From contig NZ_CP179200.1 of assembly GCF_051201565.1 (NCBI RefSeq), positions 1,020,001-1,052,000 on the forward strand: a DNA stretch of 32,000 bases, given 5' to 3'. This document shows positions 1,945-20,387 of this stretch, one piece after another. This DNA is from Pseudothioglobus sp. nBUS_23 (GTDB lineage: Bacteria; Pseudomonadota; Gammaproteobacteria; PS1; Pseudothioglobaceae). The notes under the pieces are model-generated. The model saw only the letters and a list, made by a program, of their open reading frames with translations, was not told the DNA's origin and searched no databases. Position 1 is the stretch's first letter. Each line of letters begins with the position of its first letter. The position numbers were made by a program, and so were the translations under genes.

Positions 1945-1966
1945 AGCCAAAACTGATTTAAAGAAC

Positions 1967-1996
1967 GCCCTTCTTTTTTGAGGGGCTTTCTAATTT
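1967..1996 (+). terminator. Stem-loop with a T-rich tail in the 63-nt aceA-aceK spacer (candidate partial terminator or attenuator)
   Basis: GCCCTTC (1967-1973), a TTTTTT loop, then GAGGGGC (1980-1986) form a 7-bp stem with one G-U pair. The stem is followed by TTTCTAATTT. Confidence 0.5.
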
Positions 1997-2007
1997 AAAT
2001 AGAATTT

Positions 2008-3801: not shown

Positions 3802-4279
3802 TATGAAGTCAACCTGTGATATTTCTGATGAAATGCATCCAAAAGTTCAATATTTGAACCCAGTTTTTCAGAGTTTTGGTAAAAAAAATAGCTTCTCTGG
3901 TCGAATAGTTACAATCAAATGTTATGAGGATAACTCACTTGTAGAGGAAGCTTTAAAAACTGATGGGAGTGAATGTGTTCTGGTTATTGATGCAGGGGCA
4001 TCTTTAAAGTGCGCAATGATGGGAGATAAAAGAGCCTCAGATGCAATAAAGAATAACTGGGAAGGAATTATTATTAATGGGCCAATTAGAGACTCAGCAG
4101 AAATCAATTCTATGAATATTGGTATTCGTGCTCTTGGAACATGCCCTAGAAAAAGTATTAAAAAAGGAGCTGGAAAAAGAGATATAGATGTAACTTTTTC
4201 AAATGTAAAATTCATCTCTGGAAACTATCTTTATGCTGACGAAGATGGGGTTATTGTATTGGAACATAAGGCAGATTAA
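3791..4279 (+). CDS. RraA-family protein (RNase E regulator / HMG-CHA aldolase / oxaloacetate decarboxylase family)
   Basis: The protein is collinear with E. coli RraA: VFQSFGKK.SFSGRIVTIKCYEDNSL, VLVIDAG.S...A..GD, NWEGIIINGPIRD, IGI.ALG, and NVKFISGNYLYADEDGVIV. The track start at 3734 lies inside aceK. ATG 3791 overlaps aceK by 11 nt. ATG 3803 (MKSTCDIS...) aligns better with the RraA N-terminus. The stop TAA shares one base with the glcB ATG (TAATG). Confidence 0.85.
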   Translation: MKNNMKSTCDISDEMHPKVQYLNPVFQSFGKKNSFSGRIVTIKCYEDNSLVEEALKTDGSECVLVIDAGASLKCAMMGDKRASDAIKNNWEGIIINGPIRDSAEINSMNIGIRALGTCPRKSIKKGAGKRDIDVTFSNVKFISGNYLYADEDGVIVLEHKAD

Positions 4280-6429
4280 TGAGTACTGAACATCAAGTAA
4301 TTAATGACATAAAGGTTAACAATAAATTTTATGATTTTATTGATCAAGAGGTTTGTGATGGGCTGGACATTTCTGCTACAGAATTCTTCCAATCATTATC
4401 GAACATTCTAGCTAAATACCAAGATGAAAATAAGATTCTTTTGGAGAAGAGAAGTGAGCTGCAAGCAAAGATTAATGACTGGCATCGGAACAATAAAAGG
4501 ATTGACCAAAAAAAATACAAAGGCTTTCTTGAAGACATAGGCTATATTACCTCAAATCCTGGTGAATTCAATATTGATGTTGAAGAGGTTGATGATGAGA
4601 TTTCAAAGGTTTCAGGACCTCAGCTTGTTGTTCCTATAACTAACCAAAGATTTGTATTAAATGCAGTTAATGCAAGATGGGGTAGTCTTTTTGACTGTCT
4701 GTATGGAACCAACGTAATTCCTAATAGGGGCAGTATGACAACCTCTTTTGCGCATAACCTCCAGCGTGTAAACCGAACTGCAGAACTTGCATGTGAATTT
4801 CTTGATGAAATAGCACCTCTTAAAGGCGCCTCATATAGACAAATTACTTCCCAAGTGAAGTACTCTGGGACTTTAATTTTTAATCTTGATGATGGTGAGC
4901 TAGCAACCTTAATCGATCCTGATCAGTACATTGGTCTTACTGAAAGTGGAAACATATTACTCAAGAATAACAATCTCCATCTGGAGATAGTTTGTGACCA
5001 AGAGAGAAGTCTTCACAAAAGTGGAATTTTTGATGTCATTCTTGAGTCTGCTGTCACAACGATTGTTGATTTTGAGGATTCTGCCGCGACTGTTTCTGAT
5101 GAGGAGAAAATCCATGGCTACAGGAATTATTTAGGTCTTATGAAGCGTGATTTAAACTCAACTTTCACAAAAAATGGACATACAATCAGTAGATCACTAA
5201 ATAAAGACAAAAAGTATATTGATACAAATGGTGAAGAACATACTCTTCCTGGAACTAGCTTAACTCTTGTTCGCAACGTTGGAATACATATGAGAACAAG
5301 AATGGTTAGAAATCTTGACAACTCATCTATACCTGAAGGCATTATGGATGCAATGGTTACCTCACTGATTGCACTTCATGACTTGAAACTCAAGATAAAC
5401 TCAAAAAAAGGAAGTGTTTACATTGTAAAACCAAAGCTTCATGGTCCAGATGAGGTCAAATTTACAATAGATTTATTTGAATCAGTCGAAAACGCGCTTT
5501 CAATCAAAAAGAACACTCTGAAGATTGGAATTATGGATGAAGAGAGAAGAACTACTCTAAATCTAAAAGCTTGTATTTATGAAGCAAGAAGTCGGTGTAT
5601 TTTTATTAATACTGGCTTCCTTGACAGAACTGGTGATGAAATTCATACATCGATGATGGCCGGAGCAATGCGTTGTAAAAACCTTATTAAGGAAGAGGAC
5701 TGGTTTTCTGCTTATGAGGAAAACAATGTCAGTGTTGGACTGGAATGCGGACTTTACAAGAAAGCCCAGATTGGCAAAGGAATGTGGGCACAACCCGACC
5801 AAATGAGAGAGATGCTAGATAACAAGATGGTGCATCTAGAGGCTGGTGCAAGCTGCTCTTGGGTACCCTCTCCAACTGCAGCAACTTTACATGCCACTCA
5901 TTATCATCGATTTGATGTTATGAGTCAGCAACAAAAAATATTATCTAAAAACCAAAAGCCTAATCAAGATGACCTGCTTGTAATTCCTTTTTTGAAACTA
6001 GCCGATCAATTGTCTGAGGAAAAAATTATTAATGAAATAAATAACAATGCTCAAAGTATTTTGGGTTACGTTGTTAGATGGATTAACCATGGAGTTGGTT
6101 GCTCTAAAGTTCAAGATATAAACCATGTTGGACTCATGGAAGACAGAGCAACATTAAGAATTTCCTCGCAGCATATGGCTAACTGGTTGCACCACGAGAT
6201 CTGTTCTGAGAAGCAAGTCATTCAAGCCTTTAAAGAAATGGCTCTTATAGTGGATCAACAAAATAAGCATGACCCTAACTATATTCCAATGGCTCCTAAA
6301 TACGATTGCTACGCATTTAAAGCCTCTACAGCTCTAGTATTTGAAGGGACAGACCAGGCAAATGGTTACACTGAAGACATTCTCATCAAATACCGACGAA
6401 AATTTCTTGAGGCTAATCAAATTACTTAG
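4279..6429 (+). CDS. glcB: Malate synthase G
   Basis: The 716-aa ORF is collinear with E. coli GlcB: GPQLVVP..N.R..LNA.NARWGSL.D.LYG, SVYIVKPK.HGP.EV, MDEERRT.LNL, FINTGFLDRTGDE.H, AQIGKGMWA.PD, VPSPTAATLHA.HYH and MEDRATLRISSQH.ANWL.H. Confidence 0.96.
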   Translation: MSTEHQVINDIKVNNKFYDFIDQEVCDGLDISATEFFQSLSNILAKYQDENKILLEKRSELQAKINDWHRNNKRIDQKKYKGFLEDIGYITSNPGEFNIDVEEVDDEISKVSGPQLVVPITNQRFVLNAVNARWGSLFDCLYGTNVIPNRGSMTTSFAHNLQRVNRTAELACEFLDEIAPLKGASYRQITSQVKYSGTLIFNLDDGELATLIDPDQYIGLTESGNILLKNNNLHLEIVCDQERSLHKSGIFDVILESAVTTIVDFEDSAATVSDEEKIHGYRNYLGLMKRDLNSTFTKNGHTISRSLNKDKKYIDTNGEEHTLPGTSLTLVRNVGIHMRTRMVRNLDNSSIPEGIMDAMVTSLIALHDLKLKINSKKGSVYIVKPKLHGPDEVKFTIDLFESVENALSIKKNTLKIGIMDEERRTTLNLKACIYEARSRCIFINTGFLDRTGDEIHTSMMAGAMRCKNLIKEEDWFSAYEENNVSVGLECGLYKKAQIGKGMWAQPDQMREMLDNKMVHLEAGASCSWVPSPTAATLHATHYHRFDVMSQQQKILSKNQKPNQDDLLVIPFLKLADQLSEEKIINEINNNAQSILGYVVRWINHGVGCSKVQDINHVGLMEDRATLRISSQHMANWLHHEICSEKQVIQAFKEMALIVDQQNKHDPNYIPMAPKYDCYAFKASTALVFEGTDQANGYTEDILIKYRRKFLEANQIT

Positions 6430-7735: not shown

Positions 7736-9508
7736 TTAACGATGAGGAGATTTTTCGCCGTAATCTTTGTACTTTTCTAAATGTCTAATTGGTTTGCTTA
7801 GAGCATCTTTTCTGAACGGGTCTCCCAGCTCTCTAGAGCACATAATTTCGATAATTGTTGTCTTTCTCTCATTCATTTGCATATCGATTGCTTTTTTGAG
7901 TGCTGGCCCAACATCTTCAAGCTTATCAACACGGATTCCTTCAGCGCCCATCGATTCAGCTATATTGACAAAATGTTGGTCAGTTAGTTCAGCTGCTACA
8001 AATCTTCTGTCATAAAAATCAACTTGATTCTTCTTTTCTGCTCCCCAATGACGATTATGAAAAACTACCGCTGTCACAGGGATATCATGACGTACACAAG
8101 TCATCGTTTCAACCATACTCATGGCCCATGCACCATCACCAGCATAAGAAACTGCAGGCCTATGTTGGGCAGCTGCTTTCGCGCCAATAATTGTTGGAAA
8201 TGCATAGCCACAATTTCCAAAGCTCATTGCTGCAAAAAAACTTCGTGGCTTTTCAAAGCGCAAATAACTATTTGCAACAGAGTTAATATTTCCAATATCA
8301 GTTGAAACCATTACATCTTCAGGCATTGCTTTTTCAAGTTCTCTTAAAACTTGTCTAGGATGAAGCCAACCCTCTTCCTTATTTGCAATCATATCCATGC
8401 TGTAGGAATCAGTCTCATGAATCCATTCATCCAATTCTAATTCCCAGGCCGCTTTTTCATCTGCAATCATTTTTGCTCTATCAGCTTTTGTAGAATCACA
8501 ATTAAGTGATTCAGAGTCTAATTTTTGACATAAAACTGATGCCACTGCTTTTGCATCACCACAGATACCAACATTAATTGGTTTAACTAAGCCAAGCATT
8601 TTGTGGTCAGCATCAATTTGAATAATCTGAGCATCTTTTGGCCAGTAGTCCATTCCATGCTGAGGCAGGGTCCCAAACGGGCCTAATCTAGTTCCTAACG
8701 CAATAACTACATCAGCCTTAGAAATAAGCTTCATTGCAGCTTTTGAGCCTTGATAACCCAGTGGACCACACCACAAATCATGACTAGCTGGGAAAGAATC
8801 ATTATGCAAGTAGCTATTCACTACAGGAGCGCCAAGACGCTCAGCTAAGGCTGCACACTCATCTACGCCATCTGCCATAACAACACCACCGCCAGATACA
8901 ATAACTGGAAACTTTGCTTTTGCAATCAATGCAACTGCTTCGTTGAGAGTATCCTCTCCTCCGGATCCTCGATCTATACGTCGAGGTGTAGGAATAGTGA
9001 ATTCTCCATCTGCATAGAAATAATCTCTAGGTATATTTAGTTGTGTTGGGGCCATTTCACTCATAGCTCTATCAAAACAACGGCCAGTAAATTCCGCCAT
9101 TCTCATTGGATTCACAACATGTCCCTGATATTTAGTAAACTCTTGGAACATAGGAAGTTGATTCGCTTCTTGAAATCCTCCCAATCCCATACCCATTGTT
9201 CCAGCTTCAGGAGTTACAATAACAACGGGGCTATGAGCCCAATAAGCAGCAGCAATCGCAGTAACGCAATTTGAAATTCCTGGACCATTTTGCCCAATAA
9301 CAACACCATGCCTACCACTAACCCTTGAGTATCCATCAGCCATGTGAGCAGCTCCCTGCTCATGAACAACTGGAATAAATCTTATTCCTGCGGGTTCAAA
9401 GATATCCATTGCATCCATAAATGCTGAGCCCATAATACCGAAAATATCTGTAACTTCATTCGCTACCATAGTTTCAACAAAGGCTTCACTCGAAGTCATT
9501 TTTGCCAT
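7736..9508 (-). CDS. xsc: Sulfoacetaldehyde acetyltransferase (ThDP-dependent)
   Basis: The 590-aa ThDP enzyme has long matches to characterised Xsc as I recall it: GQNGPGISN, AAYW.H.P, LNIPRDYF, AKFPVIVSGGGVV, HNDSFP.SH.L..GPLGYQGSKAAMKLISKADVVIALGTRLGPFGTLP..GMDYWPKDAQIIQID and VGICGDAK. A GGGAG Shine-Dalgarno sequence is present, and the gene sits in a tpa/ald/tauR/tauE context. Confidence 0.9.
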   Translation of the reverse strand: MAKMTSSEAFVETMVANEVTDIFGIMGSAFMDAMDIFEPAGIRFIPVVHEQGAAHMADGYSRVSGRHGVVIGQNGPGISNCVTAIAAAYWAHSPVVIVTPEAGTMGMGLGGFQEANQLPMFQEFTKYQGHVVNPMRMAEFTGRCFDRAMSEMAPTQLNIPRDYFYADGEFTIPTPRRIDRGSGGEDTLNEAVALIAKAKFPVIVSGGGVVMADGVDECAALAERLGAPVVNSYLHNDSFPASHDLWCGPLGYQGSKAAMKLISKADVVIALGTRLGPFGTLPQHGMDYWPKDAQIIQIDADHKMLGLVKPINVGICGDAKAVASVLCQKLDSESLNCDSTKADRAKMIADEKAAWELELDEWIHETDSYSMDMIANKEEGWLHPRQVLRELEKAMPEDVMVSTDIGNINSVANSYLRFEKPRSFFAAMSFGNCGYAFPTIIGAKAAAQHRPAVSYAGDGAWAMSMVETMTCVRHDIPVTAVVFHNRHWGAEKKNQVDFYDRRFVAAELTDQHFVNIAESMGAEGIRVDKLEDVGPALKKAIDMQMNERKTTIIEIMCSRELGDPFRKDALSKPIRHLEKYKDYGEKSPHR

Positions 9509-9527: not shown

Positions 9528-10646
9528 TTATTTATTTAATATATCCAAAGCAGGAACATAATCATATCCCAAATCCTGTGCAACCTCTAAACAAGTTACG
9601 TTTCCACTGTGAACGTTTAATCCAGCTCTTAGGTGCTCATCATCCAATAGAGCCTGTTTTACTCCTTTATTCGCAATACTCAGCCCGAACGGCAAGGTGA
9701 CATTGTTCAGAGCATAAGTAGATGTTTTTGGAACGCCTCCAGGCATATTAGCAACACAATAGTGCACTACATCGTCAACTATGTATGTTGGTTCTGCATG
9801 AGTTGTAGCCTTAGAAGTTTCAAAACAGCCGCCTTGGTCAATTGCAACATCTACAATCACAGATCCAGGTTTCATAGCTTTTATCATTTCTTTAGAGACC
9901 AGTTTTGGAGCTTCAGCTCCAGGAATCAGCACCCCACCAATAACCAGGTCGGCTTGGAGCACATACTCTTCTACCGAACTTTTAGTTGAGAACACAGTAT
10001 TTGTGCTTCTACCAAATTGCTGCCAATGCTGCTCCAAAGTATCAGGATTATTATCCAGTACCCAAACATCAGCACCCATACCAACAGCCATATGTGCTGC
10101 ATGAGCTCCAACAACTCCACCACCAAGTATCACTACCTTAAGTGGATCAACTCCTGGGACACCGCCAAGAAGTGCACCCATTCCGCCATTTGGATGCTCT
10201 AAAAAGTGGGCACCGGCTTGGACAGCCATTCTGCCAGCAACCTTTGACATTGGTGCCAGTAATGGCAGGCCACCTCTTGGAGAGGTTACTGTCTCATAGG
10301 CAACACAGATTGCTCCACTTTCAACAAGCCCTTTAGTCTGCTCAGGGTCTGGCGCAAGATGAAGATAAGTGTAGAGTATTTGTCCTTCTCTAAGCATGGC
10401 AATTTCTTCCGCCTGAGGTTCTTTGACCTTGACAATCATTTCTGCTTTATCAAACACCTCTTTGGCAGTTGCAATAATCTCAGCACCTGTATAAGCATAC
10501 TCCTGATCTGAAGCACCGATTCCAACACCAGCATTAGTTTGAACTAAAACTTTGTGACCATGGTTAATAAATTCCTTAACACTTCTAGGTGTAAGACCAA
10601 CTCTATACTCATGATTTTTAATTTCTTTTGGGACACCAATAATCAT
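9528..10646 (-). CDS. ald: L-alanine dehydrogenase
   Basis: The 372-aa ORF begins MIIGVPKEIKNHEYRVGLTP. It has the NAD-binding VVILGGGVVG motif and is collinear with Ald throughout. Confidence 0.93.
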   Translation of the reverse strand: MIIGVPKEIKNHEYRVGLTPRSVKEFINHGHKVLVQTNAGVGIGASDQEYAYTGAEIIATAKEVFDKAEMIVKVKEPQAEEIAMLREGQILYTYLHLAPDPEQTKGLVESGAICVAYETVTSPRGGLPLLAPMSKVAGRMAVQAGAHFLEHPNGGMGALLGGVPGVDPLKVVILGGGVVGAHAAHMAVGMGADVWVLDNNPDTLEQHWQQFGRSTNTVFSTKSSVEEYVLQADLVIGGVLIPGAEAPKLVSKEMIKAMKPGSVIVDVAIDQGGCFETSKATTHAEPTYIVDDVVHYCVANMPGGVPKTSTYALNNVTLPFGLSIANKGVKQALLDDEHLRAGLNVHSGNVTCLEVAQDLGYDYVPALDILNK

Positions 10647-10678: not shown

Positions 10679-12040
10679 TTAAATATTCGCAGCAATTGCG
10701 TTATCAACAGCATCTACAATTTGATCAATTTCGTTCTTTGAACAGATAAAAGCTGGACTGAACAAGAGCACATTGTTATTGTATTCAAAGCTTCGATTAG
10801 TTCTACCAATCATAACTTTATTTTTTAAACAATGTCCAGCAATGGCCATTGCTATGCTCTCATGAACGGGCTCTTTTGATTTTCTGTCCTTTACGAGCTC
10901 AACACCACAAAATAAACCTTTTCCCCTTACATCTCCAATGATGTCATATTTATCCTCGAGCGCATGCAACTTGTCTTTAAGATAATCACCCATATTTTTA
11001 ACATTTTCAAGGAGATTTTCTCTTTTAATAATATTTACAACTTCAAGAGCTGCAGCGGGCCCAGCAGTGCACCCACCAAAAGTAGATATGTCTCTGAAGT
11101 AGCTATCAGGGTTAGAAGGATCTTGCTTAAATCTATCAAAAATTTCTTCTGAAGTAATCGTAACAGAAATAGCGGCATAACCAGCAGCAAGGCCTTTTGC
11201 TGTAGTAACAATATCAGGCTGCACGTCAAAGTGTTGATAACCAAACCATTTACCAGTTCTGCCAAGTCCACAAACCACCTCATCAATGTGAAGTAAGACA
11301 TTATATTTTTTACATATAGATTGAATTATTGGGAAATATTCTTTGACAGGAGGAATAACACCTCCACCAGCAGTAATTGGCTCTAGAACAACAGAGCCTA
11401 CAGTATCTGGCCCCTCTTTAACAATGATATCTTCAAGTACGGTTGCGCACTCTATATTACACTCTCCATATTTTTTACCAAATGGGCAACGGTAACAACA
11501 ACAATTTGGCATTTCGACAAACCCTGGCGCAAAAGGACCATATTGTTTTTTGCGTTGGATTTGAGCAGAGGAGCTCATAGCACCAATTGTGGTTCCATGA
11601 TAATCACGATCACGAAAAATAATTTTATGTTTCTTGCCGTCATTATCAAAATGAGCCAGTTGGCGAACCATCTTATAGCCCTTTTCATTAGCTTCAGAGC
11701 CAGAATTAGAATAATAAACTCTGTTCATACCAGGCATCAACGAGGTAATTTCTTGCGCATATTCTGAAGCCGGTTCATTACCAAACGCACCAGCAAAATA
11801 AGGAATCTTTGAAATTTGATCACTAACCACCTTAACCATTTCATCTCTTCCATAACCCAGGTTCACTGTCCAAACTCCGCCTGAAGTTGCGTCCAGGTAT
11901 TCGTCACCTTTAGAATCCGTTATAATCATTCCATTAGCATTTGAAACAACTAGTGGATCATTAGATTCAAAAGCTTTGTGTTGAGTAAGATGGTGCCAGA
12001 CATGGTCTTTTGCATTTTCGACAACTGAAGTATTAGACAT
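10679..12040 (-). CDS. tpa: Class-III (omega) aminotransferase, taurine:pyruvate aminotransferase by context
   Basis: Class-III PLP motifs are present (SGSEANE, DEV.CGLGRTGKWFG, TTAKGL). The gene heads an operon with ald and xsc, divergent from tauR. I moved the start to the ATG at 12040 (MSNTSVV...), which has an AGGAGG Shine-Dalgarno sequence 4-5 nt upstream. The track start at 12088 has none. Confidence 0.8.
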   Translation of the reverse strand: MSNTSVVENAKDHVWHHLTQHKAFESNDPLVVSNANGMIITDSKGDEYLDATSGGVWTVNLGYGRDEMVKVVSDQISKIPYFAGAFGNEPASEYAQEITSLMPGMNRVYYSNSGSEANEKGYKMVRQLAHFDNDGKKHKIIFRDRDYHGTTIGAMSSSAQIQRKKQYGPFAPGFVEMPNCCCYRCPFGKKYGECNIECATVLEDIIVKEGPDTVGSVVLEPITAGGGVIPPVKEYFPIIQSICKKYNVLLHIDEVVCGLGRTGKWFGYQHFDVQPDIVTTAKGLAAGYAAISVTITSEEIFDRFKQDPSNPDSYFRDISTFGGCTAGPAAALEVVNIIKRENLLENVKNMGDYLKDKLHALEDKYDIIGDVRGKGLFCGVELVKDRKSKEPVHESIAMAIAGHCLKNKVMIGRTNRSFEYNNNVLLFSPAFICSKNEIDQIVDAVDNAIAANI

Positions 12041-12116
12041 TCTCCCTCCTAGAATAAATTTATACGCAGTATTAAAAGAAACAATCAAATTTTAAGAAAA
12101 GAATTATAAAATTTAA

Positions 12117-12148
12117 CTGGTCCTGATTTAACATATATATAGAACCAG
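12117..12148. promoter_or_regulatory. Candidate TauR (MocR) operator in the tpa/tauR divergent region
   Basis: CTGGTCC (12117-12123) and GAACCAG (12142-12148) are inverted repeats matching at 6 of 7 positions. An 18-nt AT-rich spacer containing TATATATA separates them. These are the only GC-rich islands in the 135-bp spacer. Confidence 0.35.
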
Positions 12149-12175
12149 GAAACTTACTATTAATAGGCCAGCAAA

Positions 12176-13648
12176 ATGGATGAAATGTGGAATCAATTTT
12201 TTTCTTTGAGACATGATAAACCAAGGACGCTTCAACTGCAGATCCGTCAGCAGCTAATTGATGCCATTACTAATGGTCTAATCGGTTCTAATGAGCCACT
12301 CCCGTCCTCACGAAATTTAGCAAAGGCTCTCAAGGTGGCCAGAAATACAGTCATAGCAGCTTACAAAGAGTTAGAGTTTGATGGCTATATAACACCGAAA
12401 GAAAGAAGAGGATATTTTGTTAACGAGCAATTTTATGAAAGCTATACTTCAAATGAAAAAGGCGAGCCAACTGAGCCACAGTCTCCAGTCTGGCATGATA
12501 AATTAATTACAAAAAAACCTTCTTCTCAAATCAATATTCATAATCCAGATAACTGGCAAAGTCTTCCCTACTCGTTCACAATTGGGCAACTTGACAAGAG
12601 CTTGATACCATACTATGAATGGCGAGAGGTGGTTAGACACTCATCTACACTGCCAGAAATTCAAAAATGGAATATAGATCATGTTGATAGTGATGATCCG
12701 TCCTTAATAAAACAAATCCAGTCTAAAGTTCTTCCAAAGAGAGGTATTTGGGCCAACAAAGATCAAATTTTGATTACGTCAGGCAGTCAAAATGCCATCT
12801 ACATGATAGCTAGTTTACTGACTAAACAAGGAACAGTTGTGGGTATGGAGAACCCCGGTTATCCTGATGTGAGAAACATTTTTAGCTCTAAAACTGACAA
12901 TATTGTTCCTATTAGTATTGATAAAGACGGCATTGTTGTTAACGATATTAAAGAAGACACGGATATTATTTTTACGACACCAAGCCACCAATACCCAACA
13001 GGTGTGACTATGAGTATGGAAAGAAGACGTGAACTTTTATCTATTGCCAAAGAAAAACAAATGGTTATTATTGAGGATGATTATGAGGCCGAGATAAACT
13101 TTCAAAAAAAGCCTCACCCTTCTCTCAAAAGCTTAGATAAAGACAATAATGTGATTTATGTTGGTAGCTTTTCAAAGGCTTTCGCTCCTGGTTTAAGGTT
13201 GGGATACATGGTAGCTCCTGAAAGCTTTATCAAGGAAGTCAAAGCTTTAAGAAGGCTAATGATTAGACATATACCAGCAAACAACCAGAGATCTGTTGCC
13301 CTTTTTATAGGACTAGGCCATTATCATAATATGTTTACTAAAATTCAAAAAACTAACAAAGAAAGGTGGGGGTTAATTAACGAAAAAATAAATAATGAGC
13401 CTTTATTGTCTTGCACTCCGACTCTAGGTGGTTCAACTTTTTGGATCGAAATACTTGCGCCTATCGATAGTGATAAACTTTGCAAAAACCTCCTAGGCAA
13501 AGGGGTTGCTGTAAGGTCTGGAAACACGCTATTTAGTGGGGATAACTCGCCAACAAATTATTTGCACCTTGGTTATTCTGCCATTGATACCAATAAAATT
13601 GACAAAGGTTTAGATTTAATTATTAAAGAAATTAAGGCGATGGTTTAA
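12176..13648 (+). CDS. tauR: MocR-subfamily GntR regulator (N-terminal wHTH plus C-terminal aminotransferase-like PLP domain), taurine regulator by context
   Basis: The 490-aa ORF has an N-terminal GntR HTH (LPSSRNLAKALKVARNTVIAAYKELEFDGYI). Its C-terminal fold-type-I aminotransferase-like domain includes the SFSKAFAPGLRLGY lysine motif. It is divergent from tpa. Confidence 0.8.
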   Translation: MDEMWNQFFSLRHDKPRTLQLQIRQQLIDAITNGLIGSNEPLPSSRNLAKALKVARNTVIAAYKELEFDGYITPKERRGYFVNEQFYESYTSNEKGEPTEPQSPVWHDKLITKKPSSQINIHNPDNWQSLPYSFTIGQLDKSLIPYYEWREVVRHSSTLPEIQKWNIDHVDSDDPSLIKQIQSKVLPKRGIWANKDQILITSGSQNAIYMIASLLTKQGTVVGMENPGYPDVRNIFSSKTDNIVPISIDKDGIVVNDIKEDTDIIFTTPSHQYPTGVTMSMERRRELLSIAKEKQMVIIEDDYEAEINFQKKPHPSLKSLDKDNNVIYVGSFSKAFAPGLRLGYMVAPESFIKEVKALRRLMIRHIPANNQRSVALFIGLGHYHNMFTKIQKTNKERWGLINEKINNEPLLSCTPTLGGSTFWIEILAPIDSDKLCKNLLGKGVAVRSGNTLFSGDNSPTNYLHLGYSAIDTNKIDKGLDLIIKEIKAMV

Positions 13649-13656
13649 AGTCCTCA

Positions 13657-14412
13657 ATGGAAAATCTTTATAACTTCACTCCAGAAAACTATTTATTAAT
13701 AGCTCTTGTTGTTATTTTTTCTGGTTTTTTAAGAGGCTTTATAGGCTTTGGATCTGGTCTCTTAATGATTCCAATTCTTTCTTATTTTTATTCTCCAGTC
13801 TTTGCAATGGTTTTCAATATTGTCATTGAAATTCCAGCAACCATCTATTTGACATTTGTTGGCATTAAAAAAGCTAATTTAAAAGAGATCACTCCTATGA
13901 TGGCGACAATGATGCTAACTATCCCTTTTGGAACAATATTTTTAGTTTCCGTTGATGAACAAATCATCAAAACTTTGATGTCTATACTTTTAATATTTTT
14001 TGTTATTCTGATTGGAAGTGGCTGGCGAATCAAATCTACGATAACTAAATATGTTCTTGTATTAGGAGGCGCTATCAGCGGCTTAATGCAGGGAGCAACA
14101 GGTATGGGAGGGCCGCCATACGTAACAGTTCTATTATCTAAAAATGATAGCGATGAAGTGGCACGAGCAAATATTTTAGTAATTACTTCTGGCCTAGTGA
14201 TCAGCGCTATTATGAGTCTTTATTATTTTGGACTTTTCACAAAAGACATTTTATTTACAGGTGCAATCACTGCCCCAGTCTATGTATTTGCCACATATAT
14301 TGGCACAAGATTTTTTAACTTTTCTGGGAACAAATATTACAGAAACTCTTCATTGGTTGCGCTTGGAATAGTTGGGGTAGCGACACTCATAGGCGCTTTA
14401 ATGAGCCATTAG
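13657..14412 (+). CDS. tauE: TauE/SafE-family sulfite exporter (membrane protein)
   Basis: The 251-aa ORF is polytopic and hydrophobic, with the family-typical G.G.GLL.IP and GMGGP motifs. It lies 8 nt downstream of tauR in an xsc locus. Confidence 0.8.
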   Translation: MENLYNFTPENYLLIALVVIFSGFLRGFIGFGSGLLMIPILSYFYSPVFAMVFNIVIEIPATIYLTFVGIKKANLKEITPMMATMMLTIPFGTIFLVSVDEQIIKTLMSILLIFFVILIGSGWRIKSTITKYVLVLGGAISGLMQGATGMGGPPYVTVLLSKNDSDEVARANILVITSGLVISAIMSLYYFGLFTKDILFTGAITAPVYVFATYIGTRFFNFSGNKYYRNSSLVALGIVGVATLIGALMSH

Positions 14413-16877
14413 ATTCTAATTTTTTCATTGAGTGGATCATACAAAGGTTTGAGTGATACCTTACACTTTTCAATAACACCTTCAACCTCGATAGTATACT
14501 CAGCCATTAAAATATCTTCGTGACTTTCATTTGGCTTACAAGGCACATAACCAAGTCCAACAGCGCCTCCTAGAGTATGACTATATGTTCCACTCGATAA
14601 ATGACCCACAATTTCTCCATTTTTTAGAATAGGCTCATTGTGGTATAACATTAAATCTGAATTATCTAATAAAAATTGCATAACGCGCATATCGTAGCCA
14701 GATGCTTTTTTAGATTGAACAGAGTCATGGCCAATGAAATTACCGTACTTAGAAGGCTTCTTATCAACCTTAACTGCAAACCCAAGACCTGCATTAATTA
14801 CGTGGTCTTCATCAGTAATATCATGTCCAAAATGTCTGTACGCTTTTTCAATTCTACAACTATCTACGGTATGCATTCCAATATGTCTCAAAGAAAACTC
14901 TTTGCCTTTCTCATCTAGCAACTCAGCAACATAACTTGAGAATTCAATTGGAAAATAAAGCTCCCAACCCAGTTCGCCAACATAAGTAATTCTATGAGCC
15001 CTTACATTGGCCATGCCTATCTCAATGTTTCGCACATTTGCAAATGGAAAGCTTTCATTGCTCATATCAGTATCTGTAAGCAATTGAAGTAGATCTCTCG
15101 AATTTGGACCCATAATGGCTATACAACCCTCAGAGCTTGTAGCGTCAAATAATGAACAGTTCGCATCATTTGGCATATTTTTCTGAAGCCAATGCATATC
15201 TCTATTAAGGCAAACAGTTCCGCTAACAATCAAGTAATCGTCAATAGCAAGTCGAGTCACAGTTACATCGGCCTCTATTCCGCCTTTTTCATTAAGCCAT
15301 TGAGTGTAGACCATCTTTCCAGGCTCAACATCTACATCATTTGCACAAATGAGCTGAAGAAAGTCCATAGCATCACTGCCTTTAACTCTAATTTTGGCAT
15401 ACGATGACATTTCATACATGCCAACAGACTCTCTTATAGCTTGTTGCTCTAATTTATGATACTCAAACCAATTTTGCCTACCCCAAGAATATTCATACTT
15501 TGCCTCTGCCTTACCAATGAGCTCTTCTGGAACAAACCAGTTAGGCCTCTCCCAGCCAGCAACTTCACCAAAACAGGCGCCACGTTTTTTGTAGAAATCA
15601 TAAAGAGGTGTTTTCCTTAGTCCTCTTGCAGTTTCATATTGGTGATATGGAAAATGATTTTCATAAAGATAGCCAAGGGTTTCAGTTACTCTGTTAGCTA
15701 GATAAGTCTTATTACTCTGGAAGGACTGATTTCTTCTTATATCTACGTCCCATAAATCACAAGGTGGTTCTTTGCCAACAATCCATTCTGCTAGATATTT
15801 TCCAGCTCCGCCAGCAGCTTGAATTCCAATTGAGTTGAACCCAGCAGCAACATAAAAACTTCCAAGTTCCGGTGACTCACCAATTTGAAAATTATCATCT
15901 GGTGTAAAACTTTCTGGCCCATTGAAAAGTGTTTCAATACCTAAACTCTCCATTACTGGGACTCTGTTCATTGCTAATTCAAGGTAAGGCATGCAGTGAT
16001 CTAAATCATCCTGAATTTGATCAAAACAAAAATCCTCTGGTATGCCATTTTGAGCCCAGGGTTTAGCATTTGGCTCAAATAGACCAACCAATATTTTTCC
16101 AGCGTCTTCTTTGTAGTATGCAGACTCGTCTGGAACTCTGACAACCGGCATATCTCCTAATCCTGGTACAGCCGAAGTTAAAAAATAGAAATGCTCACAG
16201 GCATGAAGTGGAACTGACACTCCAGCCATTTTTCCTACTTCTCTTGCCCACATGCCACCGCAGTTGACAACTACCTCAGATTGAATGTCTCCAAAATCTG
16301 TTTGAACTCCAGTTGCCTTTCCATTATCTTTAAGAATCCCAGTAACTTTTACATCTTCAAAAATTTTAACGCCATTATTTTTAGCGCCCTTTGCCAGAGC
16401 CATTGCAACATTTGCTGGATCAGCCTTGCCATCTTTAGGTATCCATGCACCACCCACGACGTCATCAAGATTAAAAAAATCTAACTTCTTTCTTAACTCA
16501 TCTGTTGACAGGATTTGTACATCAACCCCATGAACCTTTGCAAGTGATGCATTGCGTTTATATTCAGTTAACCTCTCTTGATTAGTAGCTAGACTTACAG
16601 AGCCAGTTCTTCTGTAACCAGTAGCCATTCCAGTTTCTGATTCAAGTGTTTCATAGAGATTTCCAGAGTACTTAACCATTTGAGTTAAATTAAGCGAGGA
16701 TCGCATTTGTCCTACAAGACCAGCGGCATGCCAAGTTGTGCCAGAAGTTAATTTTTTTCTCTCTAGTAAGACTACATCCTTGTATCCAAGTTTTGAAAGG
16801 TGATAAGCAACGGAGCAACCAACAACTCCACCACCAATGATTACTGCTTGAGCATGCTTAGGAATACTTGTCGACAT
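14409..16877 (-). CDS. Dimethylglycine/sarcosine dehydrogenase-family flavoenzyme (N-terminal FAD oxidoreductase plus C-terminal GcvT-like folate-binding domain)
   Basis: The 822-aa ORF has the dinucleotide fold AVIIGGGVVGCSVAYHL and SGTTWHAAGL, the covalent-FAD histidine context of DMGDH/SARDH. The C-terminal ~400 aa form an aminomethyltransferase-like domain (ITYVGELGWELY, MLYHNEPI). Its start lies 36 nt after the tauC stop on the same strand. Confidence 0.85.
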   Translation of the reverse strand: MSTSIPKHAQAVIIGGGVVGCSVAYHLSKLGYKDVVLLERKKLTSGTTWHAAGLVGQMRSSLNLTQMVKYSGNLYETLESETGMATGYRRTGSVSLATNQERLTEYKRNASLAKVHGVDVQILSTDELRKKLDFFNLDDVVGGAWIPKDGKADPANVAMALAKGAKNNGVKIFEDVKVTGILKDNGKATGVQTDFGDIQSEVVVNCGGMWAREVGKMAGVSVPLHACEHFYFLTSAVPGLGDMPVVRVPDESAYYKEDAGKILVGLFEPNAKPWAQNGIPEDFCFDQIQDDLDHCMPYLELAMNRVPVMESLGIETLFNGPESFTPDDNFQIGESPELGSFYVAAGFNSIGIQAAGGAGKYLAEWIVGKEPPCDLWDVDIRRNQSFQSNKTYLANRVTETLGYLYENHFPYHQYETARGLRKTPLYDFYKKRGACFGEVAGWERPNWFVPEELIGKAEAKYEYSWGRQNWFEYHKLEQQAIRESVGMYEMSSYAKIRVKGSDAMDFLQLICANDVDVEPGKMVYTQWLNEKGGIEADVTVTRLAIDDYLIVSGTVCLNRDMHWLQKNMPNDANCSLFDATSSEGCIAIMGPNSRDLLQLLTDTDMSNESFPFANVRNIEIGMANVRAHRITYVGELGWELYFPIEFSSYVAELLDEKGKEFSLRHIGMHTVDSCRIEKAYRHFGHDITDEDHVINAGLGFAVKVDKKPSKYGNFIGHDSVQSKKASGYDMRVMQFLLDNSDLMLYHNEPILKNGEIVGHLSSGTYSHTLGGAVGLGYVPCKPNESHEDILMAEYTIEVEGVIEKCKVSLKPLYDPLNEKIRI

Positions 16878-16913
16878 ATCTATTTAAGTGATAAAAAAAA
16901 TAGAATTATAGAA

Positions 16914-18182
16914 CTATTTACCCTTCCATGGAACGAGATAGTTTTCTGAAATTCTCATTAATATATCAATGGCATAGCCAATGACGCCAATTAAAACAAT
17001 TCCCATAATTACTAAGTCGGTCATTTGGAATTTAGATGCGTTAATAATCATCATTCCAGCTCCTTTTTGTGCAGCTACCAATTCTGCAGCAACAACTGTT
17101 CCCCAGCAAACTCCCATAGATACTCTTGCACCTGTAAAGATCTCTGGCAAACTATTTGGAACAATGACTAACCTCATAATCTGCCACTTTGATGCGCCGA
17201 GGGAGTAAGCGGCATGGATTTTTGAAATTTTCACACCTGAAACTCCTGCTCTGGCTGAAATCGTCATAATCCAGAGTGATGCTAAAAATAGCAAAATAAT
17301 CTTACCCTGCTCTCCAATTCCAAACCAAATAATAACTAGCGGAATGAGAGCTAAAGGTGGCACTGGCCTCATAAATTCAACTATAGGGTCAAACCAGCCC
17401 CTAAACCATCCAGATAAACCCATCGCATAGCCCAAAGGAATTCCAATAATTGCACCAGCTAAAAACCCAACAATTACTCGAATAAGGGACCAACCTAAGT
17501 GCTCCCATAGAGTAAAGTTTTTATACCCTTCAGAGCCAACCTTGACTAATCTAGACCAGACTGTTTCTGGTGCAGGAAGCCACACAGGCTGCATCTGCCA
17601 GCCTTTTTCTGGTGTGACACTCAACGTACCCTTTCTTGTCATATAAATACGAGCATTGTCAACAAACACCTCTTGTTCTGGAGATATTTCCTGTCCATTG
17701 ACAGCTACTACTTTATAGTCTTTATCTTTTCCACCTACATCGTTTTTTTGAACTTTAATAAGTCCACTTCTGTAGGTTATGATTTGATCAGTATCATTCA
17801 GCGCAAAACCGTCTCCTGGTTCAATTTCAAGCTTGTCAGGTATTACACCAGACTGAACATCATAGACCGTTATGGTTACATCGGCGTCATCTGTTTCACC
17901 AGAGGAATTCATTGCTGTATAGCTAAAAGAGAGATCGCCAACAAAAGGTCCAGGCACATGAATTGGGATTAATTTAGAGCCTGTGAATGCTGCCCATATA
18001 GCAAAGATAGCGATTACGGATATAAAAGATGCTGCTCTGTTAGGTGTGACAGCACTCTCATCTCCAAAAGTTACTGTTTTTAAACTTGTAAAATCATCTT
18101 GTGATTTGGTAAATGATGTAGCAATCTTAACAACATAGAAAGCTGCAACAAAAATTATTATATAAAAAATTAAAATAGCCAT
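16914..18182 (-). CDS. tauC: Taurine ABC transporter permease with a long N-terminal/periplasmic extension
   Basis: The C-terminal ~225 aa are collinear with E. coli TauC: LP.P..V, TLW.HL..SL.R, DPI.E..RPVPPLA..PL.IIWFGIGE, SLGAS, LPEI.TG.R and VAAEL.AA..G.G. The N-terminal ~200 aa have no counterpart in the 275-aa E. coli protein. The ATG shares one base with the tauB stop (TAATG). Confidence 0.85.
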   Translation of the reverse strand: MAILIFYIIIFVAAFYVVKIATSFTKSQDDFTSLKTVTFGDESAVTPNRAASFISVIAIFAIWAAFTGSKLIPIHVPGPFVGDLSFSYTAMNSSGETDDADVTITVYDVQSGVIPDKLEIEPGDGFALNDTDQIITYRSGLIKVQKNDVGGKDKDYKVVAVNGQEISPEQEVFVDNARIYMTRKGTLSVTPEKGWQMQPVWLPAPETVWSRLVKVGSEGYKNFTLWEHLGWSLIRVIVGFLAGAIIGIPLGYAMGLSGWFRGWFDPIVEFMRPVPPLALIPLVIIWFGIGEQGKIILLFLASLWIMTISARAGVSGVKISKIHAAYSLGASKWQIMRLVIVPNSLPEIFTGARVSMGVCWGTVVAAELVAAQKGAGMMIINASKFQMTDLVIMGIVLIGVIGYAIDILMRISENYLVPWKGK

Positions 18183-18985
18183 TAGTTTTCTTCCGCTCTA
18201 CCCATTATTTCTTCTTCCATTTCCCAAATAATTGAGAGAATTTCATCCCGAGTCTCAGTGTAGCCATCCGCCTTTTTAACATCCCTTAAATCCATGTTTA
18301 CTCCCATTTCAGCAAAAGGGAGTTGGTATTCTTTGTGGATTCTTCCTGGTCTTGGAGCTAGTACTAACAATCTTTCACCAAGAAGAACCGCCTCTTCAAC
18401 TGAGTGAGTAATTAAGATAATTGTTTTACCAGTCTCTTTCCATAGTTTTAAAACAAGGCCTTGCATTTTTTCACGTGTTAATGCATCTAATGCGCCTAAT
18501 GGTTCATCCATCAAGATTACATCAGGATCATTGGCCAGACACCTTGCTAGAGCAACTCTTTGTTGCATCCCTCCAGATAATTCATAAACCGCTTTATCTT
18601 CAAAATCAGCGAGTCCTACAATCTCTAAAAGATGCTTAACCTTTTCTTCTTGCTCTGACTTAGACATTCCCTTCATTCGGGGTCCAAAAGCAACGTTTGA
18701 GCGAACATTCATCCACTCAAAAAGAGCGCCCTGCTGAAAAACCATTCCACGCTCTGCGCCAGGCCCTTGAACAATCTCATCATTCAGAATAACCTTGCCT
18801 TCTGTAGGAGCTAGAAAGCCTGCTACGATATTAAGTAGTGTAGTTTTTCCACAGCCCGAGGGTCCAAGAACAGTAATTATTTGTCCTTCATCTATGTCAA
18901 GTGAAACGTCTTTTAGCGCTTGAACGGAAGATCCATTCTTTAAGTCAAAACGCATGGATATATTATTTATTGATAAACCTTTCAA
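18182..18985 (-). CDS. tauB: Taurine ABC transporter ATP-binding protein
   Basis: Walker A (GPSGCGKTT), the signature LSGGMQQRVALAR and Walker B (ILMDEP) are all present. The start is TTG at 18985, with a GGAG Shine-Dalgarno sequence 7 nt upstream. The first in-frame ATG would remove the conserved first beta-strand. Confidence 0.9.
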   Translation of the reverse strand: MKGLSINNISMRFDLKNGSSVQALKDVSLDIDEGQIITVLGPSGCGKTTLLNIVAGFLAPTEGKVILNDEIVQGPGAERGMVFQQGALFEWMNVRSNVAFGPRMKGMSKSEQEEKVKHLLEIVGLADFEDKAVYELSGGMQQRVALARCLANDPDVILMDEPLGALDALTREKMQGLVLKLWKETGKTIILITHSVEEAVLLGERLLVLAPRPGRIHKEYQLPFAEMGVNMDLRDVKKADGYTETRDEILSIIWEMEEEIMGRAEEN

Positions 18986-19011
18986 AACTGGCTCCGAATT
19001 TGTTTTTCATT

Positions 19012-19041
19012 AAAAAAGTGGCACACTTAAAAGTGCGCCAC
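19012..19041 (-). terminator. Intra-operon intrinsic terminator or attenuator between tauA and tauB
   Basis: On the minus-strand transcript, GUGGCGCAC, a UUUUAA loop and GUGUGCCAC form a 9-bp stem with one mismatch. UUUUUU follows immediately. The element lies in the 110-nt tauA-tauB spacer. Confidence 0.6.
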
Positions 19042-19095
19042 CTTTGGTCTAACTAATACTAAATTAAAGACTTAAATGTCGTTAATTTAAATACT

Positions 19096-20091
19096 TTATT
19101 GTGCAGCTAGTCCCTCTAAGCCATCAGTGTTGATAGCATTAGCATATGAACCACGAGCACTTGGGATGTTTCCACTGTTAACGAATACATCTGCTACACC
19201 TTTAAGGAATGCCGCACCTGATCCACCAAGCCAGTTACTACCTAGTTGGTTGCTAACTGAAGGGAATACAAATGTCGCCATTGTTTCAGCCGTAGCTTGC
19301 TCATCCATACCTGCATCTTTAGCAATATGAGGAAGCATTAGTGAAGTAAATCCACCAGAATTCCACATTGCATTTGAAGCAGCAGTAACACCTAAGAATG
19401 TTTGAAGAACTTCTGCATTCTCATCAGCAAAGCTTGCTGGAACTGATGTTACATCCCATACCAAGATACCTAGAGCTGTTTTTTCAGCACCTGTTAAAAG
19501 AACATTACCATGTTCTAGAGCACGACGAAGTGAACCACCCCAACCACAGAACATATCAATACTTCCTTGCGCTAATGCAGCAGCACCTTCCGGTGGAGCC
19601 ATATCAACAACTTGCATTGAGTCTACTGAAACACCAAAATGTTCCATCTGCTTTAAGAAGCCATAGTGCGCAGCTGTTCCGATTGGAACTGAAACTTTCT
19701 TGCCAGCTAATTCTGAAGCGTTGCTTGCATCAATTTCTAGGCCTGAAGCCACAACACAGTTGTCGTTATCAGCATAGCTCACAGCCACGTCAACAATTTG
19801 GATATCCTGACCAGTTGATGCCGCCACGATAAATGGAGGCACACCCTGGCTCACAGATATATGGATATCACCTGATGCCATAGCAGCTGACATTGCTGTA
19901 CCTGTTCCAAAAGCTTTCCAGTTGACTTTCATACCAAGAGCTTCATCATAAGCACCGATTTGTTTTGCGTACTCAAATGGCATTGGCCACTCTTCAAAAT
20001 AAGCCACATTCAACTCATCAAGAGCCATAACATTCACTGAAGCAATAGCACTTACTACTGTAGCTCCAATTTTTTTATAAATACTTTTCAT
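19096..20091 (-). CDS. tauA: Taurine ABC transporter periplasmic substrate-binding protein
   Basis: The 331-aa ORF has a signal peptide (MKSIYKKIGATVVSAIASVNVMA). It is collinear with E. coli TauA (W..F.(S/T)G......A.ASGD..I, PP..VAAS, GK...VP...(T/A)HY). A GGAG Shine-Dalgarno sequence is present. GC content and codon bias are visibly higher than in neighbouring genes, consistent with high expression. Confidence 0.88.
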   Translation of the reverse strand: MKSIYKKIGATVVSAIASVNVMALDELNVAYFEEWPMPFEYAKQIGAYDEALGMKVNWKAFGTGTAMSAAMASGDIHISVSQGVPPFIVAASTGQDIQIVDVAVSYADNDNCVVASGLEIDASNASELAGKKVSVPIGTAAHYGFLKQMEHFGVSVDSMQVVDMAPPEGAAALAQGSIDMFCGWGGSLRRALEHGNVLLTGAEKTALGILVWDVTSVPASFADENAEVLQTFLGVTAASNAMWNSGGFTSLMLPHIAKDAGMDEQATAETMATFVFPSVSNQLGSNWLGGSGAAFLKGVADVFVNSGNIPSARGSYANAINTDGLEGLAAQ

Positions 20092-20387
20092 TGTTTCTCC
20101 TAAAATAATATAAATATTTAACTTACCCTATTTTCAGCAAAAAAAGTAAGCCTGAGCTATAGAGTAAAAACTCATTTTTAGCTAACTAGATTTGAATGCT
20201 GAAATTAAATACTACCATGAAAAAAGATAAAATCAATAAAATTTTTAAAGATGTGTTTAATTTATTTTTGATTGAGATAAAAAAAGAACTATGGTGGCTG
20301 AAAGAGATTTATTAATTGTCTAATTTAAGCTGGAGCGCAACTTAAAAAAATAATTTCAGTTTGGTGGACTTTTATTAATTGATTATT

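Follow-up and report, generated by a model that had tools for sequence, protein, structure and literature searches.

A candidate folate-linked N-demethylase gene behind taurine-type transporter genes in Pseudothioglobus

Gene content and organization of the taurine locus

We analyzed a stretch of 32,000 nucleotides (the window) from Pseudothioglobus sp. nBUS_23 (contig NZ_CP179200.1, positions 1,020,001 to 1,052,000), in which an open reading frame (ORF) for a protein of 822 amino acids (aa) lies behind genes for a TauABC-like transporter. Judged by its sequence, this protein of the dimethylglycine dehydrogenase (DMGDH) and dimethylglycine oxidase (DMGO) family is a complete, functional-looking N-demethylase linked to tetrahydrofolate (THF), and we discuss here whether it could act on N-methylated taurines. 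The G+C content of the window is 36-41% and its nearest relatives are Ca. Pseudothioglobus and Ca. Thioglobus genomes of the SUP05/Arctic96BD-19 clade. Loci of relatives compared in this analysis, each of about 22 kb, carry L-numbers. The order on the minus strand is tauA, a hairpin, tauB, tauC, a 36-nt spacer and the 822-aa ORF, all at the coordinates that an earlier interpretation made from the letters alone (the sequence-only reading) had assigned to them. Beyond the demethylase gene lie tauE and the gene of a MocR-type regulator on the plus strand, followed by tpa, ald and xsc on the minus strand:

19096-20091, minus: tauA-like periplasmic substrate-binding protein, 331 aa, NMT1/SsuA family (TIGR01729, 130 bits, cut-off 304)
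18182-18985, minus: tauB-like ATP-binding cassette (ABC) ATPase, 267 aa (285 bits, cut-off 357)
16914-18182, minus: tauC-like permease, 422 aa (240 bits, cut-off 342; BPD_transp_1 covers only residues 247-413)
14409-16877, minus: predicted N-demethylase, 822 aa, dependent on flavin adenine dinucleotide (FAD) and THF, DMGDH/DMGO family (by Pfam domains and residue alignment)
13657-14412, plus: TauE/SafE-family sulfite exporter, 251 aa (domain match)
12176-13648, plus: MocR-type regulator (GntR plus aminotransferase fold, Aminotran_1_2), TauR candidate, divergent from tpa
10679-12088, minus: class-III aminotransferase (Aminotran_3), 469 aa, candidate taurine:pyruvate aminotransferase Tpa
9528-10646, minus: alanine dehydrogenase Ald (TIGR00518, 523 bits, cut-off 392)
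7736-9508, minus: sulfoacetaldehyde acetyltransferase Xsc (TIGR03457, 1015 bits, cut-off 676)

A Tpa/Xsc set for taurine dissimilation is therefore clustered in the window, made up of Xsc, Ald, the class-III aminotransferase, the sulfite exporter and the MocR-type regulator. The taurine names proposed in the sequence-only reading fared unevenly. Xsc and Ald both scored above their curated equivalog cut-offs, whereas TauA, TauB and TauC fell below the NCBIfam cut-offs for taurine transporters and are thus tau-like rather than certified taurine transporters. The regulator exceeded the NCBIfam cut-off for PdxR (374 against 320 bits), so that the name TauR rests on genomic context. Its automatic annotation as PdxR may be a misnaming, as context and operator point to taurine control.

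The structure nearest to the window TauA was that of Escherichia coli TauA (6SSY, E = 7e-21); an attempt to read ligand specificity from this alignment was dropped because the two proteins are too distant (78 bits). TauC, TauB and TauA were 69, 76 and 63% identical to those of the alphaproteobacterial locus L121. The first 190 aa or so of the window TauC form an extension that lies outside the permease domain. L121 has the long form too (421 aa), which may point to a transporter subtype. The tauE and demethylase genes are convergent, their stop codons overlap by 4 nt (14409-14412) and no terminator was found between them. tauE is variably present, being absent from many related loci.

The 822-aa demethylase

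The FAD fold, the TTWHAAGL motif and the C-terminal GcvT-like domain noticed in the sequence-only reading were all borne out by Pfam searches and residue alignments. Four domains are joined in one chain: DAO (PF01266, residues 11-365), FAO_M (PF16350, 370-422), GCV_T (PF01571, 425-701) and GCV_T_C (PF08669, 731-814). A GxGxxG motif is found at residues 14-20. TTWHAAGL occupies residues 47-54 and places the flavinylation-type histidine at His50, whose counterparts in the alignment are the flavinylated His residues of rat and human DMGDH (STWHAAGL) and of DMGO (STSHAPGL). The catalytic dyad His225/Tyr259 of DMGO is matched by His229/Tyr254, and Asp537 (in GGIEADVTV) corresponds to the folate-site residue Asp552 of DMGO (in GGVRSDITV), which we take to be the acidic residue acting in that site. 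His50, His229, Tyr254 and Asp537 were invariant among 27 homologues. In human DMGDH the FAD attachment site is His91 (PMC5082570), and a covalently bound FAD appears most likely for the 822-aa protein too, going by these alignments.

The best solved relatives were rat and human DMGDH (E ~1e-138) and Arthrobacter DMGO (E = 3e-108). No NCBIfam equivalog was found for the protein, just partial sub-threshold matches to GcvT, SoxA/B and ThiO models. It neither clusters tightly with bona fide DMGDH, which the sequence-only reading had named, together with activity on dimethylglycine or sarcosine only, as speaking against its idea, nor matches a curated equivalog of that enzyme; together with its homologues it forms a family of its own at 50-60% identity. 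Homologues carry the JGI label 4-methylaminobutanoate oxidase.

Recurrence of taurine genes beside homologues

About 30 Thioglobaceae loci share the gene order of the window. The arrangement tauABC-demethylase-(tauE)-tauR-tpa-ald-xsc was present in every Thioglobaceae locus long enough to contain it, with demethylase identities of 73-96%, and the metagenome contig L039 encodes a protein identical to that of the window. Since synteny within one family could reflect shared ancestry alone, homologues outside Thioglobaceae were examined, namely the 10 nearest (58-60% identity) and 80 metagenome loci (50-58%). Removal of duplicates left 83 non-Thioglobaceae loci, in which taurine markers within 10 kb were counted. 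A simple ORF caller produced antisense mis-calls in some loci of high G+C content; clusters 14, 25 and 28 were ignored.

Five of the 10 nearest homologues lay inside taurine loci of three different layouts. Strong taurine markers were found in 13 of the 83 loci (16%) and Xsc in eight (binomial P = 2e-7, for an assumed background of 0.75%), so the survey proposed along with the sequence-only reading did reveal tau linkage in unrelated lineages. The fraction with taurine markers was higher the closer the homologue was to the window protein: 6/10 at 57% identity or more, 3/21 at 54.5-57% and 4/52 below that. The Xsc proteins of L050, L098 and L117 were above the TIGR03457 cut-off. In a neighbour-joining tree the taurine-linked members fell on at least nine separate branches, including those closest to the Thioglobaceae clade. 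The layouts observed were:

L035, L120, L119 and L044: TauABC-like transporter, MttB, Xsc, MocR regulator, (Pta), demethylase
L036: paralogue and demethylase, a different ABC importer, TauE, MocR regulator, aminotransferase, Ack
L121: TRAP transporter, GMC oxidoreductase, Xsc, paralogue and demethylase, TauCBA, TauE, MocR regulator, aminotransferase, Ack
L050 and L052: demethylase adjoining Pta-Xsc-aminotransferase-TauAB
L117: aminotransferase-demethylase-paralogue operon, divergent from Xsc
L082 and L104: Tpa-Ald-demethylase operon

Positions 1-22475 of L121 resemble a hub for compounds converging on sulfoacetaldehyde, in which the GMC oxidoreductase is perhaps isethionate dehydrogenase-like. 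Some loci have a SoeA-like molybdopterin subunit (L061, 5637-8513) or a SoeB-like iron-sulfur subunit (L020, 19490-20179) beside the taurine genes; these are candidates for a sulfite dehydrogenase that would replace or supplement TauE there.

A shared operator-type repeat

A direct repeat beginning with CTGG was found at the taurine genes of the window and its relatives:

12139-12171, minus: candidate operator, the direct repeat CTGGCCTATTAA-N11-CTGGTTCTAT in the divergent tauR-tpa region, kept in 26 related loci
20289-20323, minus: degenerate tauA copy of the operator, TTAGACAATTAA..CAGCCACCATAG in the window against TTGGACTATTAA-N10-CTGGTACCATAG in relatives
20209-20236, minus: putative promoter, a block TTGATT-N16-TGG-TAGTAT about 115 nt before the tauA start

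In most relatives the tauA copy reads CTGGACTATTAA-N10-CTGGTTCTATA and lies about 230 nt upstream of tauA; it is intact at the same place in L002, L004, L017, L020, L021, L030 and L042. Across the 22-kb loci, matches to the strict pattern CTGGnCTATTAA-N9-11-CTGGTTCTATA were confined to three places: the tauA upstream region, the tauR-tpa interval and, in L022 and L023, the region ahead of the demethylase gene. These two deep-sea loci have no tauABC, and the repeat precedes their demethylase gene by about 143 nt, which suggests that taurine-type control persists outside the tauABC operon. The MocR-type regulator would be expected to bind the repeat, by analogy and given its divergent arrangement: CTGG-type direct repeats are reportedly bound by TauR of Rhodobacter capsulatus, according to work of Wiethaus et al. 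in 2008. A further motif, TGGTGGC/GCCACCA, was seen upstream of tauA in the window and in L022; it is absent from other genomes and was discarded as a mutated remnant of the CTGG repeat operator. The block TTGATTTTATC..TTTTCATGGTAGTATTT is kept in most Thioglobaceae regions upstream of tauA and scored under the consensus-scan threshold.

Since taurine linkage recurs independently and the operator is shared, we consider it highly probable that the demethylase is functionally coupled to taurine catabolism and not its chance neighbour.

Gene junctions and co-transcription

Two intergenic regions bear on the transcription of the demethylase gene:

about 19010-19045, minus: terminator-like hairpin of 13-14 bp, GC-rich and followed by a T-run, in the tauA-tauB gap
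16878-16913, minus: unstructured 36-nt spacer between tauC and the 822-aa gene, containing TATAAT at 16905-16910

The tauB stop and tauC start overlap as TAATG, just as previously read. The hairpin seen earlier between tauA and tauB folds at -29.3 kcal/mol (z = -4.4; none of 200 shuffles was as good) and is a probable partial terminator or attenuator. As the sequence-only reading also held, the 36-nt spacer has no hairpin (z = 0.29, with 124 of 200 shuffles as good), and a consensus scan of it gave neither a promoter-like nor a terminator-like site and no convincing -35 box. Among 31 related loci its length stays within 30-45 nt in all but L009, where it is 14 nt. Read-through from tauABC into the 822-aa gene, which would then be the last of the transcript, is likely as the simplest explanation.

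The alternative, that the demethylase gene stands outside the tauABC transcript with its own promoter in the spacer and regulation independent of taurine, seems unlikely to us. It would account for the TATAAT directly 3' of the tauC stop, which is kept in most of the 31 loci while the remaining spacer drifts, and it has a parallel in L022 and L023, where the demethylase gene is free-standing and has an upstream region to itself. On the other hand, the TATAAT lacks an acceptable -35 partner, nothing after tauC would end transcription, the spacer length is conserved, and the stand-alone gene itself has the taurine-type operator, which would leave its regulation linked to taurine either way. Because of the conserved TATAAT, strict co-transcription with tauABC is graded here only as likely; a weak internal promoter that provides some of the expression is possible.

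Deep-sea relatives and modules of the wider family

In deep-sea Thioglobaceae the tauABC genes are replaced by a divergent operon (L022, 1-4222; L124, 9126-20946; L125; L126) whose products are a choline-kinase-like protein, a DMGDH-family paralogue of 815 aa, an ABC transporter of the Opp type and a sulfatase. This operon and the demethylase gene flank one operator-bearing region. A choline-O-sulfate-like or ethanolamine-O-sulfate-like compound might be its substrate. The family of the 815-aa paralogue is labelled sarcosine dehydrogenase by JGI and is 65-78% identical across phyla; as L022-type genomes carry this paralogue beside the demethylase, the latter is distinct from the sarcosine-dehydrogenase type.

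In Alphaproteobacteria the demethylase usually follows a paralogue of about 810 aa in a tandem pair, often with a helix-turn-helix (HTH)-cupin regulator ahead of the pair. A non-pyrrolysine MttB-family methyltransferase (371 bits, cut-off 525) was located near the demethylase in 17 of the 83 loci, usually directly after the pair:

L035, 2772-4343: MttB-family gene
L119, 4462-6033: MttB-family gene
L122, 12519-14084: MttB-family gene
14 more loci: MttB-family gene beside the demethylase

No corrinoid-protein gene was visible near these genes of aerobic Alphaproteobacteria. Other family variants have a GbcA-like Rieske oxygenase (280 against 670 bits) or a homocysteine S-methyltransferase (62 against 338 bits, BHMT model). 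The pairing with a second paralogue and with non-pyrrolysine MttB suggests that the modules of this family remove three, two or one N-methyl groups stepwise, from tri-, di- and monomethyl amines, and the family may be somewhat promiscuous. Beside Xsc and Pta, the logical series of substrates would be taurobetaine, dimethyltaurine and N-methyltaurine, ending in taurine, and the MttB-family genes are candidates for demethylases of quaternary amines, perhaps of taurobetaine.

The roseobacter-type clade of the family is derived on the tree and differs at the otherwise invariant positions R329, E334, W376, R559, F610 and D689; its presumed function need therefore not transfer to the window protein. 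When specificity residues were sought by setting the nine taurine-linked branches against the groups linked to a methyltransferase, to MttB or to a Rieske protein, only this clade stood out.

Other genes in the window

The genes of the glyoxylate shunt adjoin the taurine locus beyond xsc (637-6429, plus strand): isocitrate lyase (aceA), aceK, an RraA-like gene and malate synthase G. They are thereby adjacent to a source of acetyl phosphate, Xsc. Neither pta nor ack was present among the annotated ORFs of the window. Upstream of tauA are nusB and riboflavin genes. A 144-aa ORF antisense inside tauA (19398-19832, plus strand) is most likely spurious, and an Rfam scan of the window gave no RNA family.

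Proposed pathway and alternatives

We propose, with a probability of roughly 0.5, that the 822-aa enzyme demethylates N-methyltaurine, and perhaps dimethyltaurine, to taurine in a THF-linked reaction that feeds the Tpa/Ald/Xsc route. Its gene would be a member of the taurine regulon of Ca. Pseudothioglobus. An N-methylated taurine would be imported by the TauABC-like system, N-methyltaurine being the leading candidate and N,N-dimethyltaurine a possible one. The flavin domain would oxidize the N-methyl C-N bond by means of the His229/Tyr254 dyad and the FAD on His50, after which the iminium or formaldehyde unit would reach the THF of the GcvT domain (Asp537) by way of the internal cavity. This would yield taurine and 5,10-methylene-THF, with an electron-transfer flavoprotein (ETF) or O2 as the electron acceptor. 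Taurine would be deaminated by Tpa, with pyruvate regenerated by Ald, and Xsc would convert sulfoacetaldehyde to acetyl phosphate and sulfite, the latter being exported by TauE. The acetyl units could feed the glyoxylate shunt encoded next door.

Several observations weigh against this proposal. We infer the substrate from gene context, and likewise the product. Half of the 10 nearest homologues (L038, L122, L123, L127 and the P0064 contig) had none of the taurine genes within 10 kb, and some 84% of the 83 other loci lacked strong taurine markers over that distance. A search for residues that would set the taurine-linked members apart gave none. The roseobacter-type clade of the same family adjoins a homocysteine S-methyltransferase gene. 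TauA, TauB and TauC have the taurine-transporter models as their best matches but score below all three cut-offs, so that a taurine is no more than a candidate for the imported ligand. Both TGG cores of the tauA operator are mutated in the window and in L039, which suggests that control of tauABC by the regulator is altered or lost in this population. Finally, the reports of methylated taurines known to us concern red algae and tubeworms, and we found none for pelagic seawater.

Could the enzyme simply serve glycine-betaine catabolism as an ordinary dimethylglycine or sarcosine dehydrogenase, one that merely adjoins the taurine genes in an island for osmolyte catabolism and has no role in taurine use? 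We regard this, the main rival reading, as improbable. Its best solved relatives are indeed DMGDH and DMGO, both of which accept dimethylglycine and sarcosine (PMC5082570), and members of the family at 52-55% identity sit in clusters of HTH-cupin, paralogue, homocysteine S-methyltransferase and demethylase genes. This layout matches SPO3396-SPO3400 of Ruegeria pomeroyi, where, at the level of annotation, SPO3400 is the DMGDH and SPO3396 the sarcosine dehydrogenase of glycine-betaine catabolism (PMC4744692). Yet neighbours of the betaine-pathway type occur only in the derived roseobacter-type clade with its six divergent positions, and the homocysteine methyltransferase of those clusters is far under the BHMT cut-off. 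Taurine genes, by contrast, recur on at least nine separate branches and in several layouts, a taurine-type operator precedes the demethylase gene in loci that lack tauABC, the 32-kb window was found to hold none of the betaine-pathway genes (BHMT, GbcAB, sox), and L022-type genomes possess a separate paralogue labelled sarcosine dehydrogenase.

Equally, we doubt that the substrate is another N-methylated two-carbon zwitterion, with the family acting as a general module that takes different substrates in different contexts. Candidates would be a methylated ethanolamine-O-sulfate derived from choline-O-sulfate, N-methyl-beta-alanine or a methylated aminoethylphosphonate. Such a module would explain the varied first-step enzymes (MttB-like, GbcA-like Rieske, homocysteine methyltransferase) and downstream genes (AptA-type omega-aminotransferase, aldehyde dehydrogenase, HIBADH-like reductase), the divergent operon of L124-L126, the scores of TauABC below the taurine cut-offs and the JGI label of the homologues. 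In the window, however, all catabolic neighbours fit the conversion of taurine through sulfoacetaldehyde to acetyl phosphate, and Xsc is sulfoacetaldehyde-specific and above its equivalog cut-off; moreover, the nearest homologues outside Thioglobaceae lie among Xsc, Pta or Ack, and TauE.

An extension of the N-methyltaurine proposal is a widespread stepwise route from methylated taurines (taurobetaine, dimethyltaurine and N-methyltaurine) to taurine, in which a non-pyrrolysine MttB-type methyltransferase would act first, on one methyl group, and two DMGDH-family dehydrogenases would transfer the remaining two to THF; the taurine formed would then go into Tpa/Xsc. This we offer as a tentative, rather doubtful scheme. 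Alphaproteobacteria would have the full set, while the abundant heterotrophs of the SUP05 clade would keep the last enzyme only, encoded downstream of a dedicated TauABC variant and governed by the taurine operator.

Taurine is a major source of carbon, nitrogen, sulfur and energy for marine bacteria, and N-methylated taurines are known osmolytes of algae and invertebrates. If the proposal is true, folate-linked demethylation would be a new entry into the sulfonate network, organosulfur and one-carbon metabolism would be linked in a gammaproteobacterial clade that ranks among the most abundant in the ocean, and one of the many marine DMGDH paralogues of unknown substrate would obtain a function. 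If the widespread route is true as well, methylated sulfonate osmolytes would have a new sink, and the ocean a new source of C1 units and energy. The analysis also flags the non-pyrrolysine MttB genes of aerobic Alphaproteobacteria as candidate taurobetaine demethylases.

Comparison with known systems

The enzyme and the pathway are of known kinds; the proposed THF-linked route of N-methyltaurine demethylation appears to be undescribed. Literature searches on N-methyl-, dimethyl- and trimethyltaurine (taurobetaine) and on MttB with taurine found no bacterial catabolic study, and publications on Thioglobus, North Sea sulfonates, a sponge symbiont and betaine uptake did not mention the demethylase gene. 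We found no published THF-linked N-methyltaurine route, in agreement with the novelty suggested in the sequence-only reading.

Mammalian DMGDH (rat, 4PAA and 4PAB; human, 5L46) has the same four-part architecture and aligns over residues 8-787 of the window protein, with the flavinylation His, the His/Tyr dyad and the folate domain all kept. However, the active-site stretch is ACEHFY in place of PVQHQY, and Arg59, invariant in the 822-aa family, corresponds to a His in DMGDH. The family is distant, lacks an NCBIfam equivalog and, in the window, has a taurine context rather than a choline/betaine one. DMGO of Arthrobacter globiformis (1PJ5) can likewise be aligned over its full length, the equivalents of His225/Tyr259 and Asp552 are kept, and by analogy channelling of the C1 unit to THF would be expected in the 822-aa enzyme as well. 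In contrast to the window enzyme, for which an electron acceptor is only proposed, DMGO is an oxidase acting on dimethylglycine; the sequences have diverged, and Trp376 of the 822-aa family is Gly in DMGO. The 4-methylaminobutanoate oxidase of the nicotine plasmid of Paenarthrobacter nicotinovorans belongs to the DMGDH family and takes the methyl group from a secondary N-methyl omega-amino acid, not from a glycine derivative. Compared here by description and by JGI label only, it is a precedent for longer-chain substrates, although its context is nicotine catabolism and not taurine genes.

In the canonical tau loci that have been described we know of no DMGDH-family gene. These alphaproteobacterial loci of the type tauR-tauABC-tpa-xsc(-pta), as in R. 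capsulatus and Sinorhizobium meliloti (Wiethaus et al. 2008, as cited in PMC4254191), share with the window the ABC importer, the MocR-type regulator, the aminotransferase, Xsc, the sulfite exporter and a direct-repeat operator that starts with CTGG. They differ in that the transporter proteins of the window score below the taurine equivalog cut-offs and its TauC is of the long 422-aa form.

The closest functional comparison is the N-methyltaurine dehydrogenase route that Weinitschke, Denger and Cook are said to have described in 2006 for Alcaligenes faecalis and Paracoccus versutus, where N-methyltaurine reportedly yields methylamine and sulfoacetaldehyde. To our knowledge, the only known catabolic route for N-methylated taurines is this one, with release of methylamine. 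Both routes would bring N-methyltaurine into the sulfoacetaldehyde/Xsc pathway. However, the dehydrogenase cleaves the other C-N bond and involves no folate, whereas the route proposed here would give taurine and methylene-THF and would need Tpa to reach sulfoacetaldehyde.

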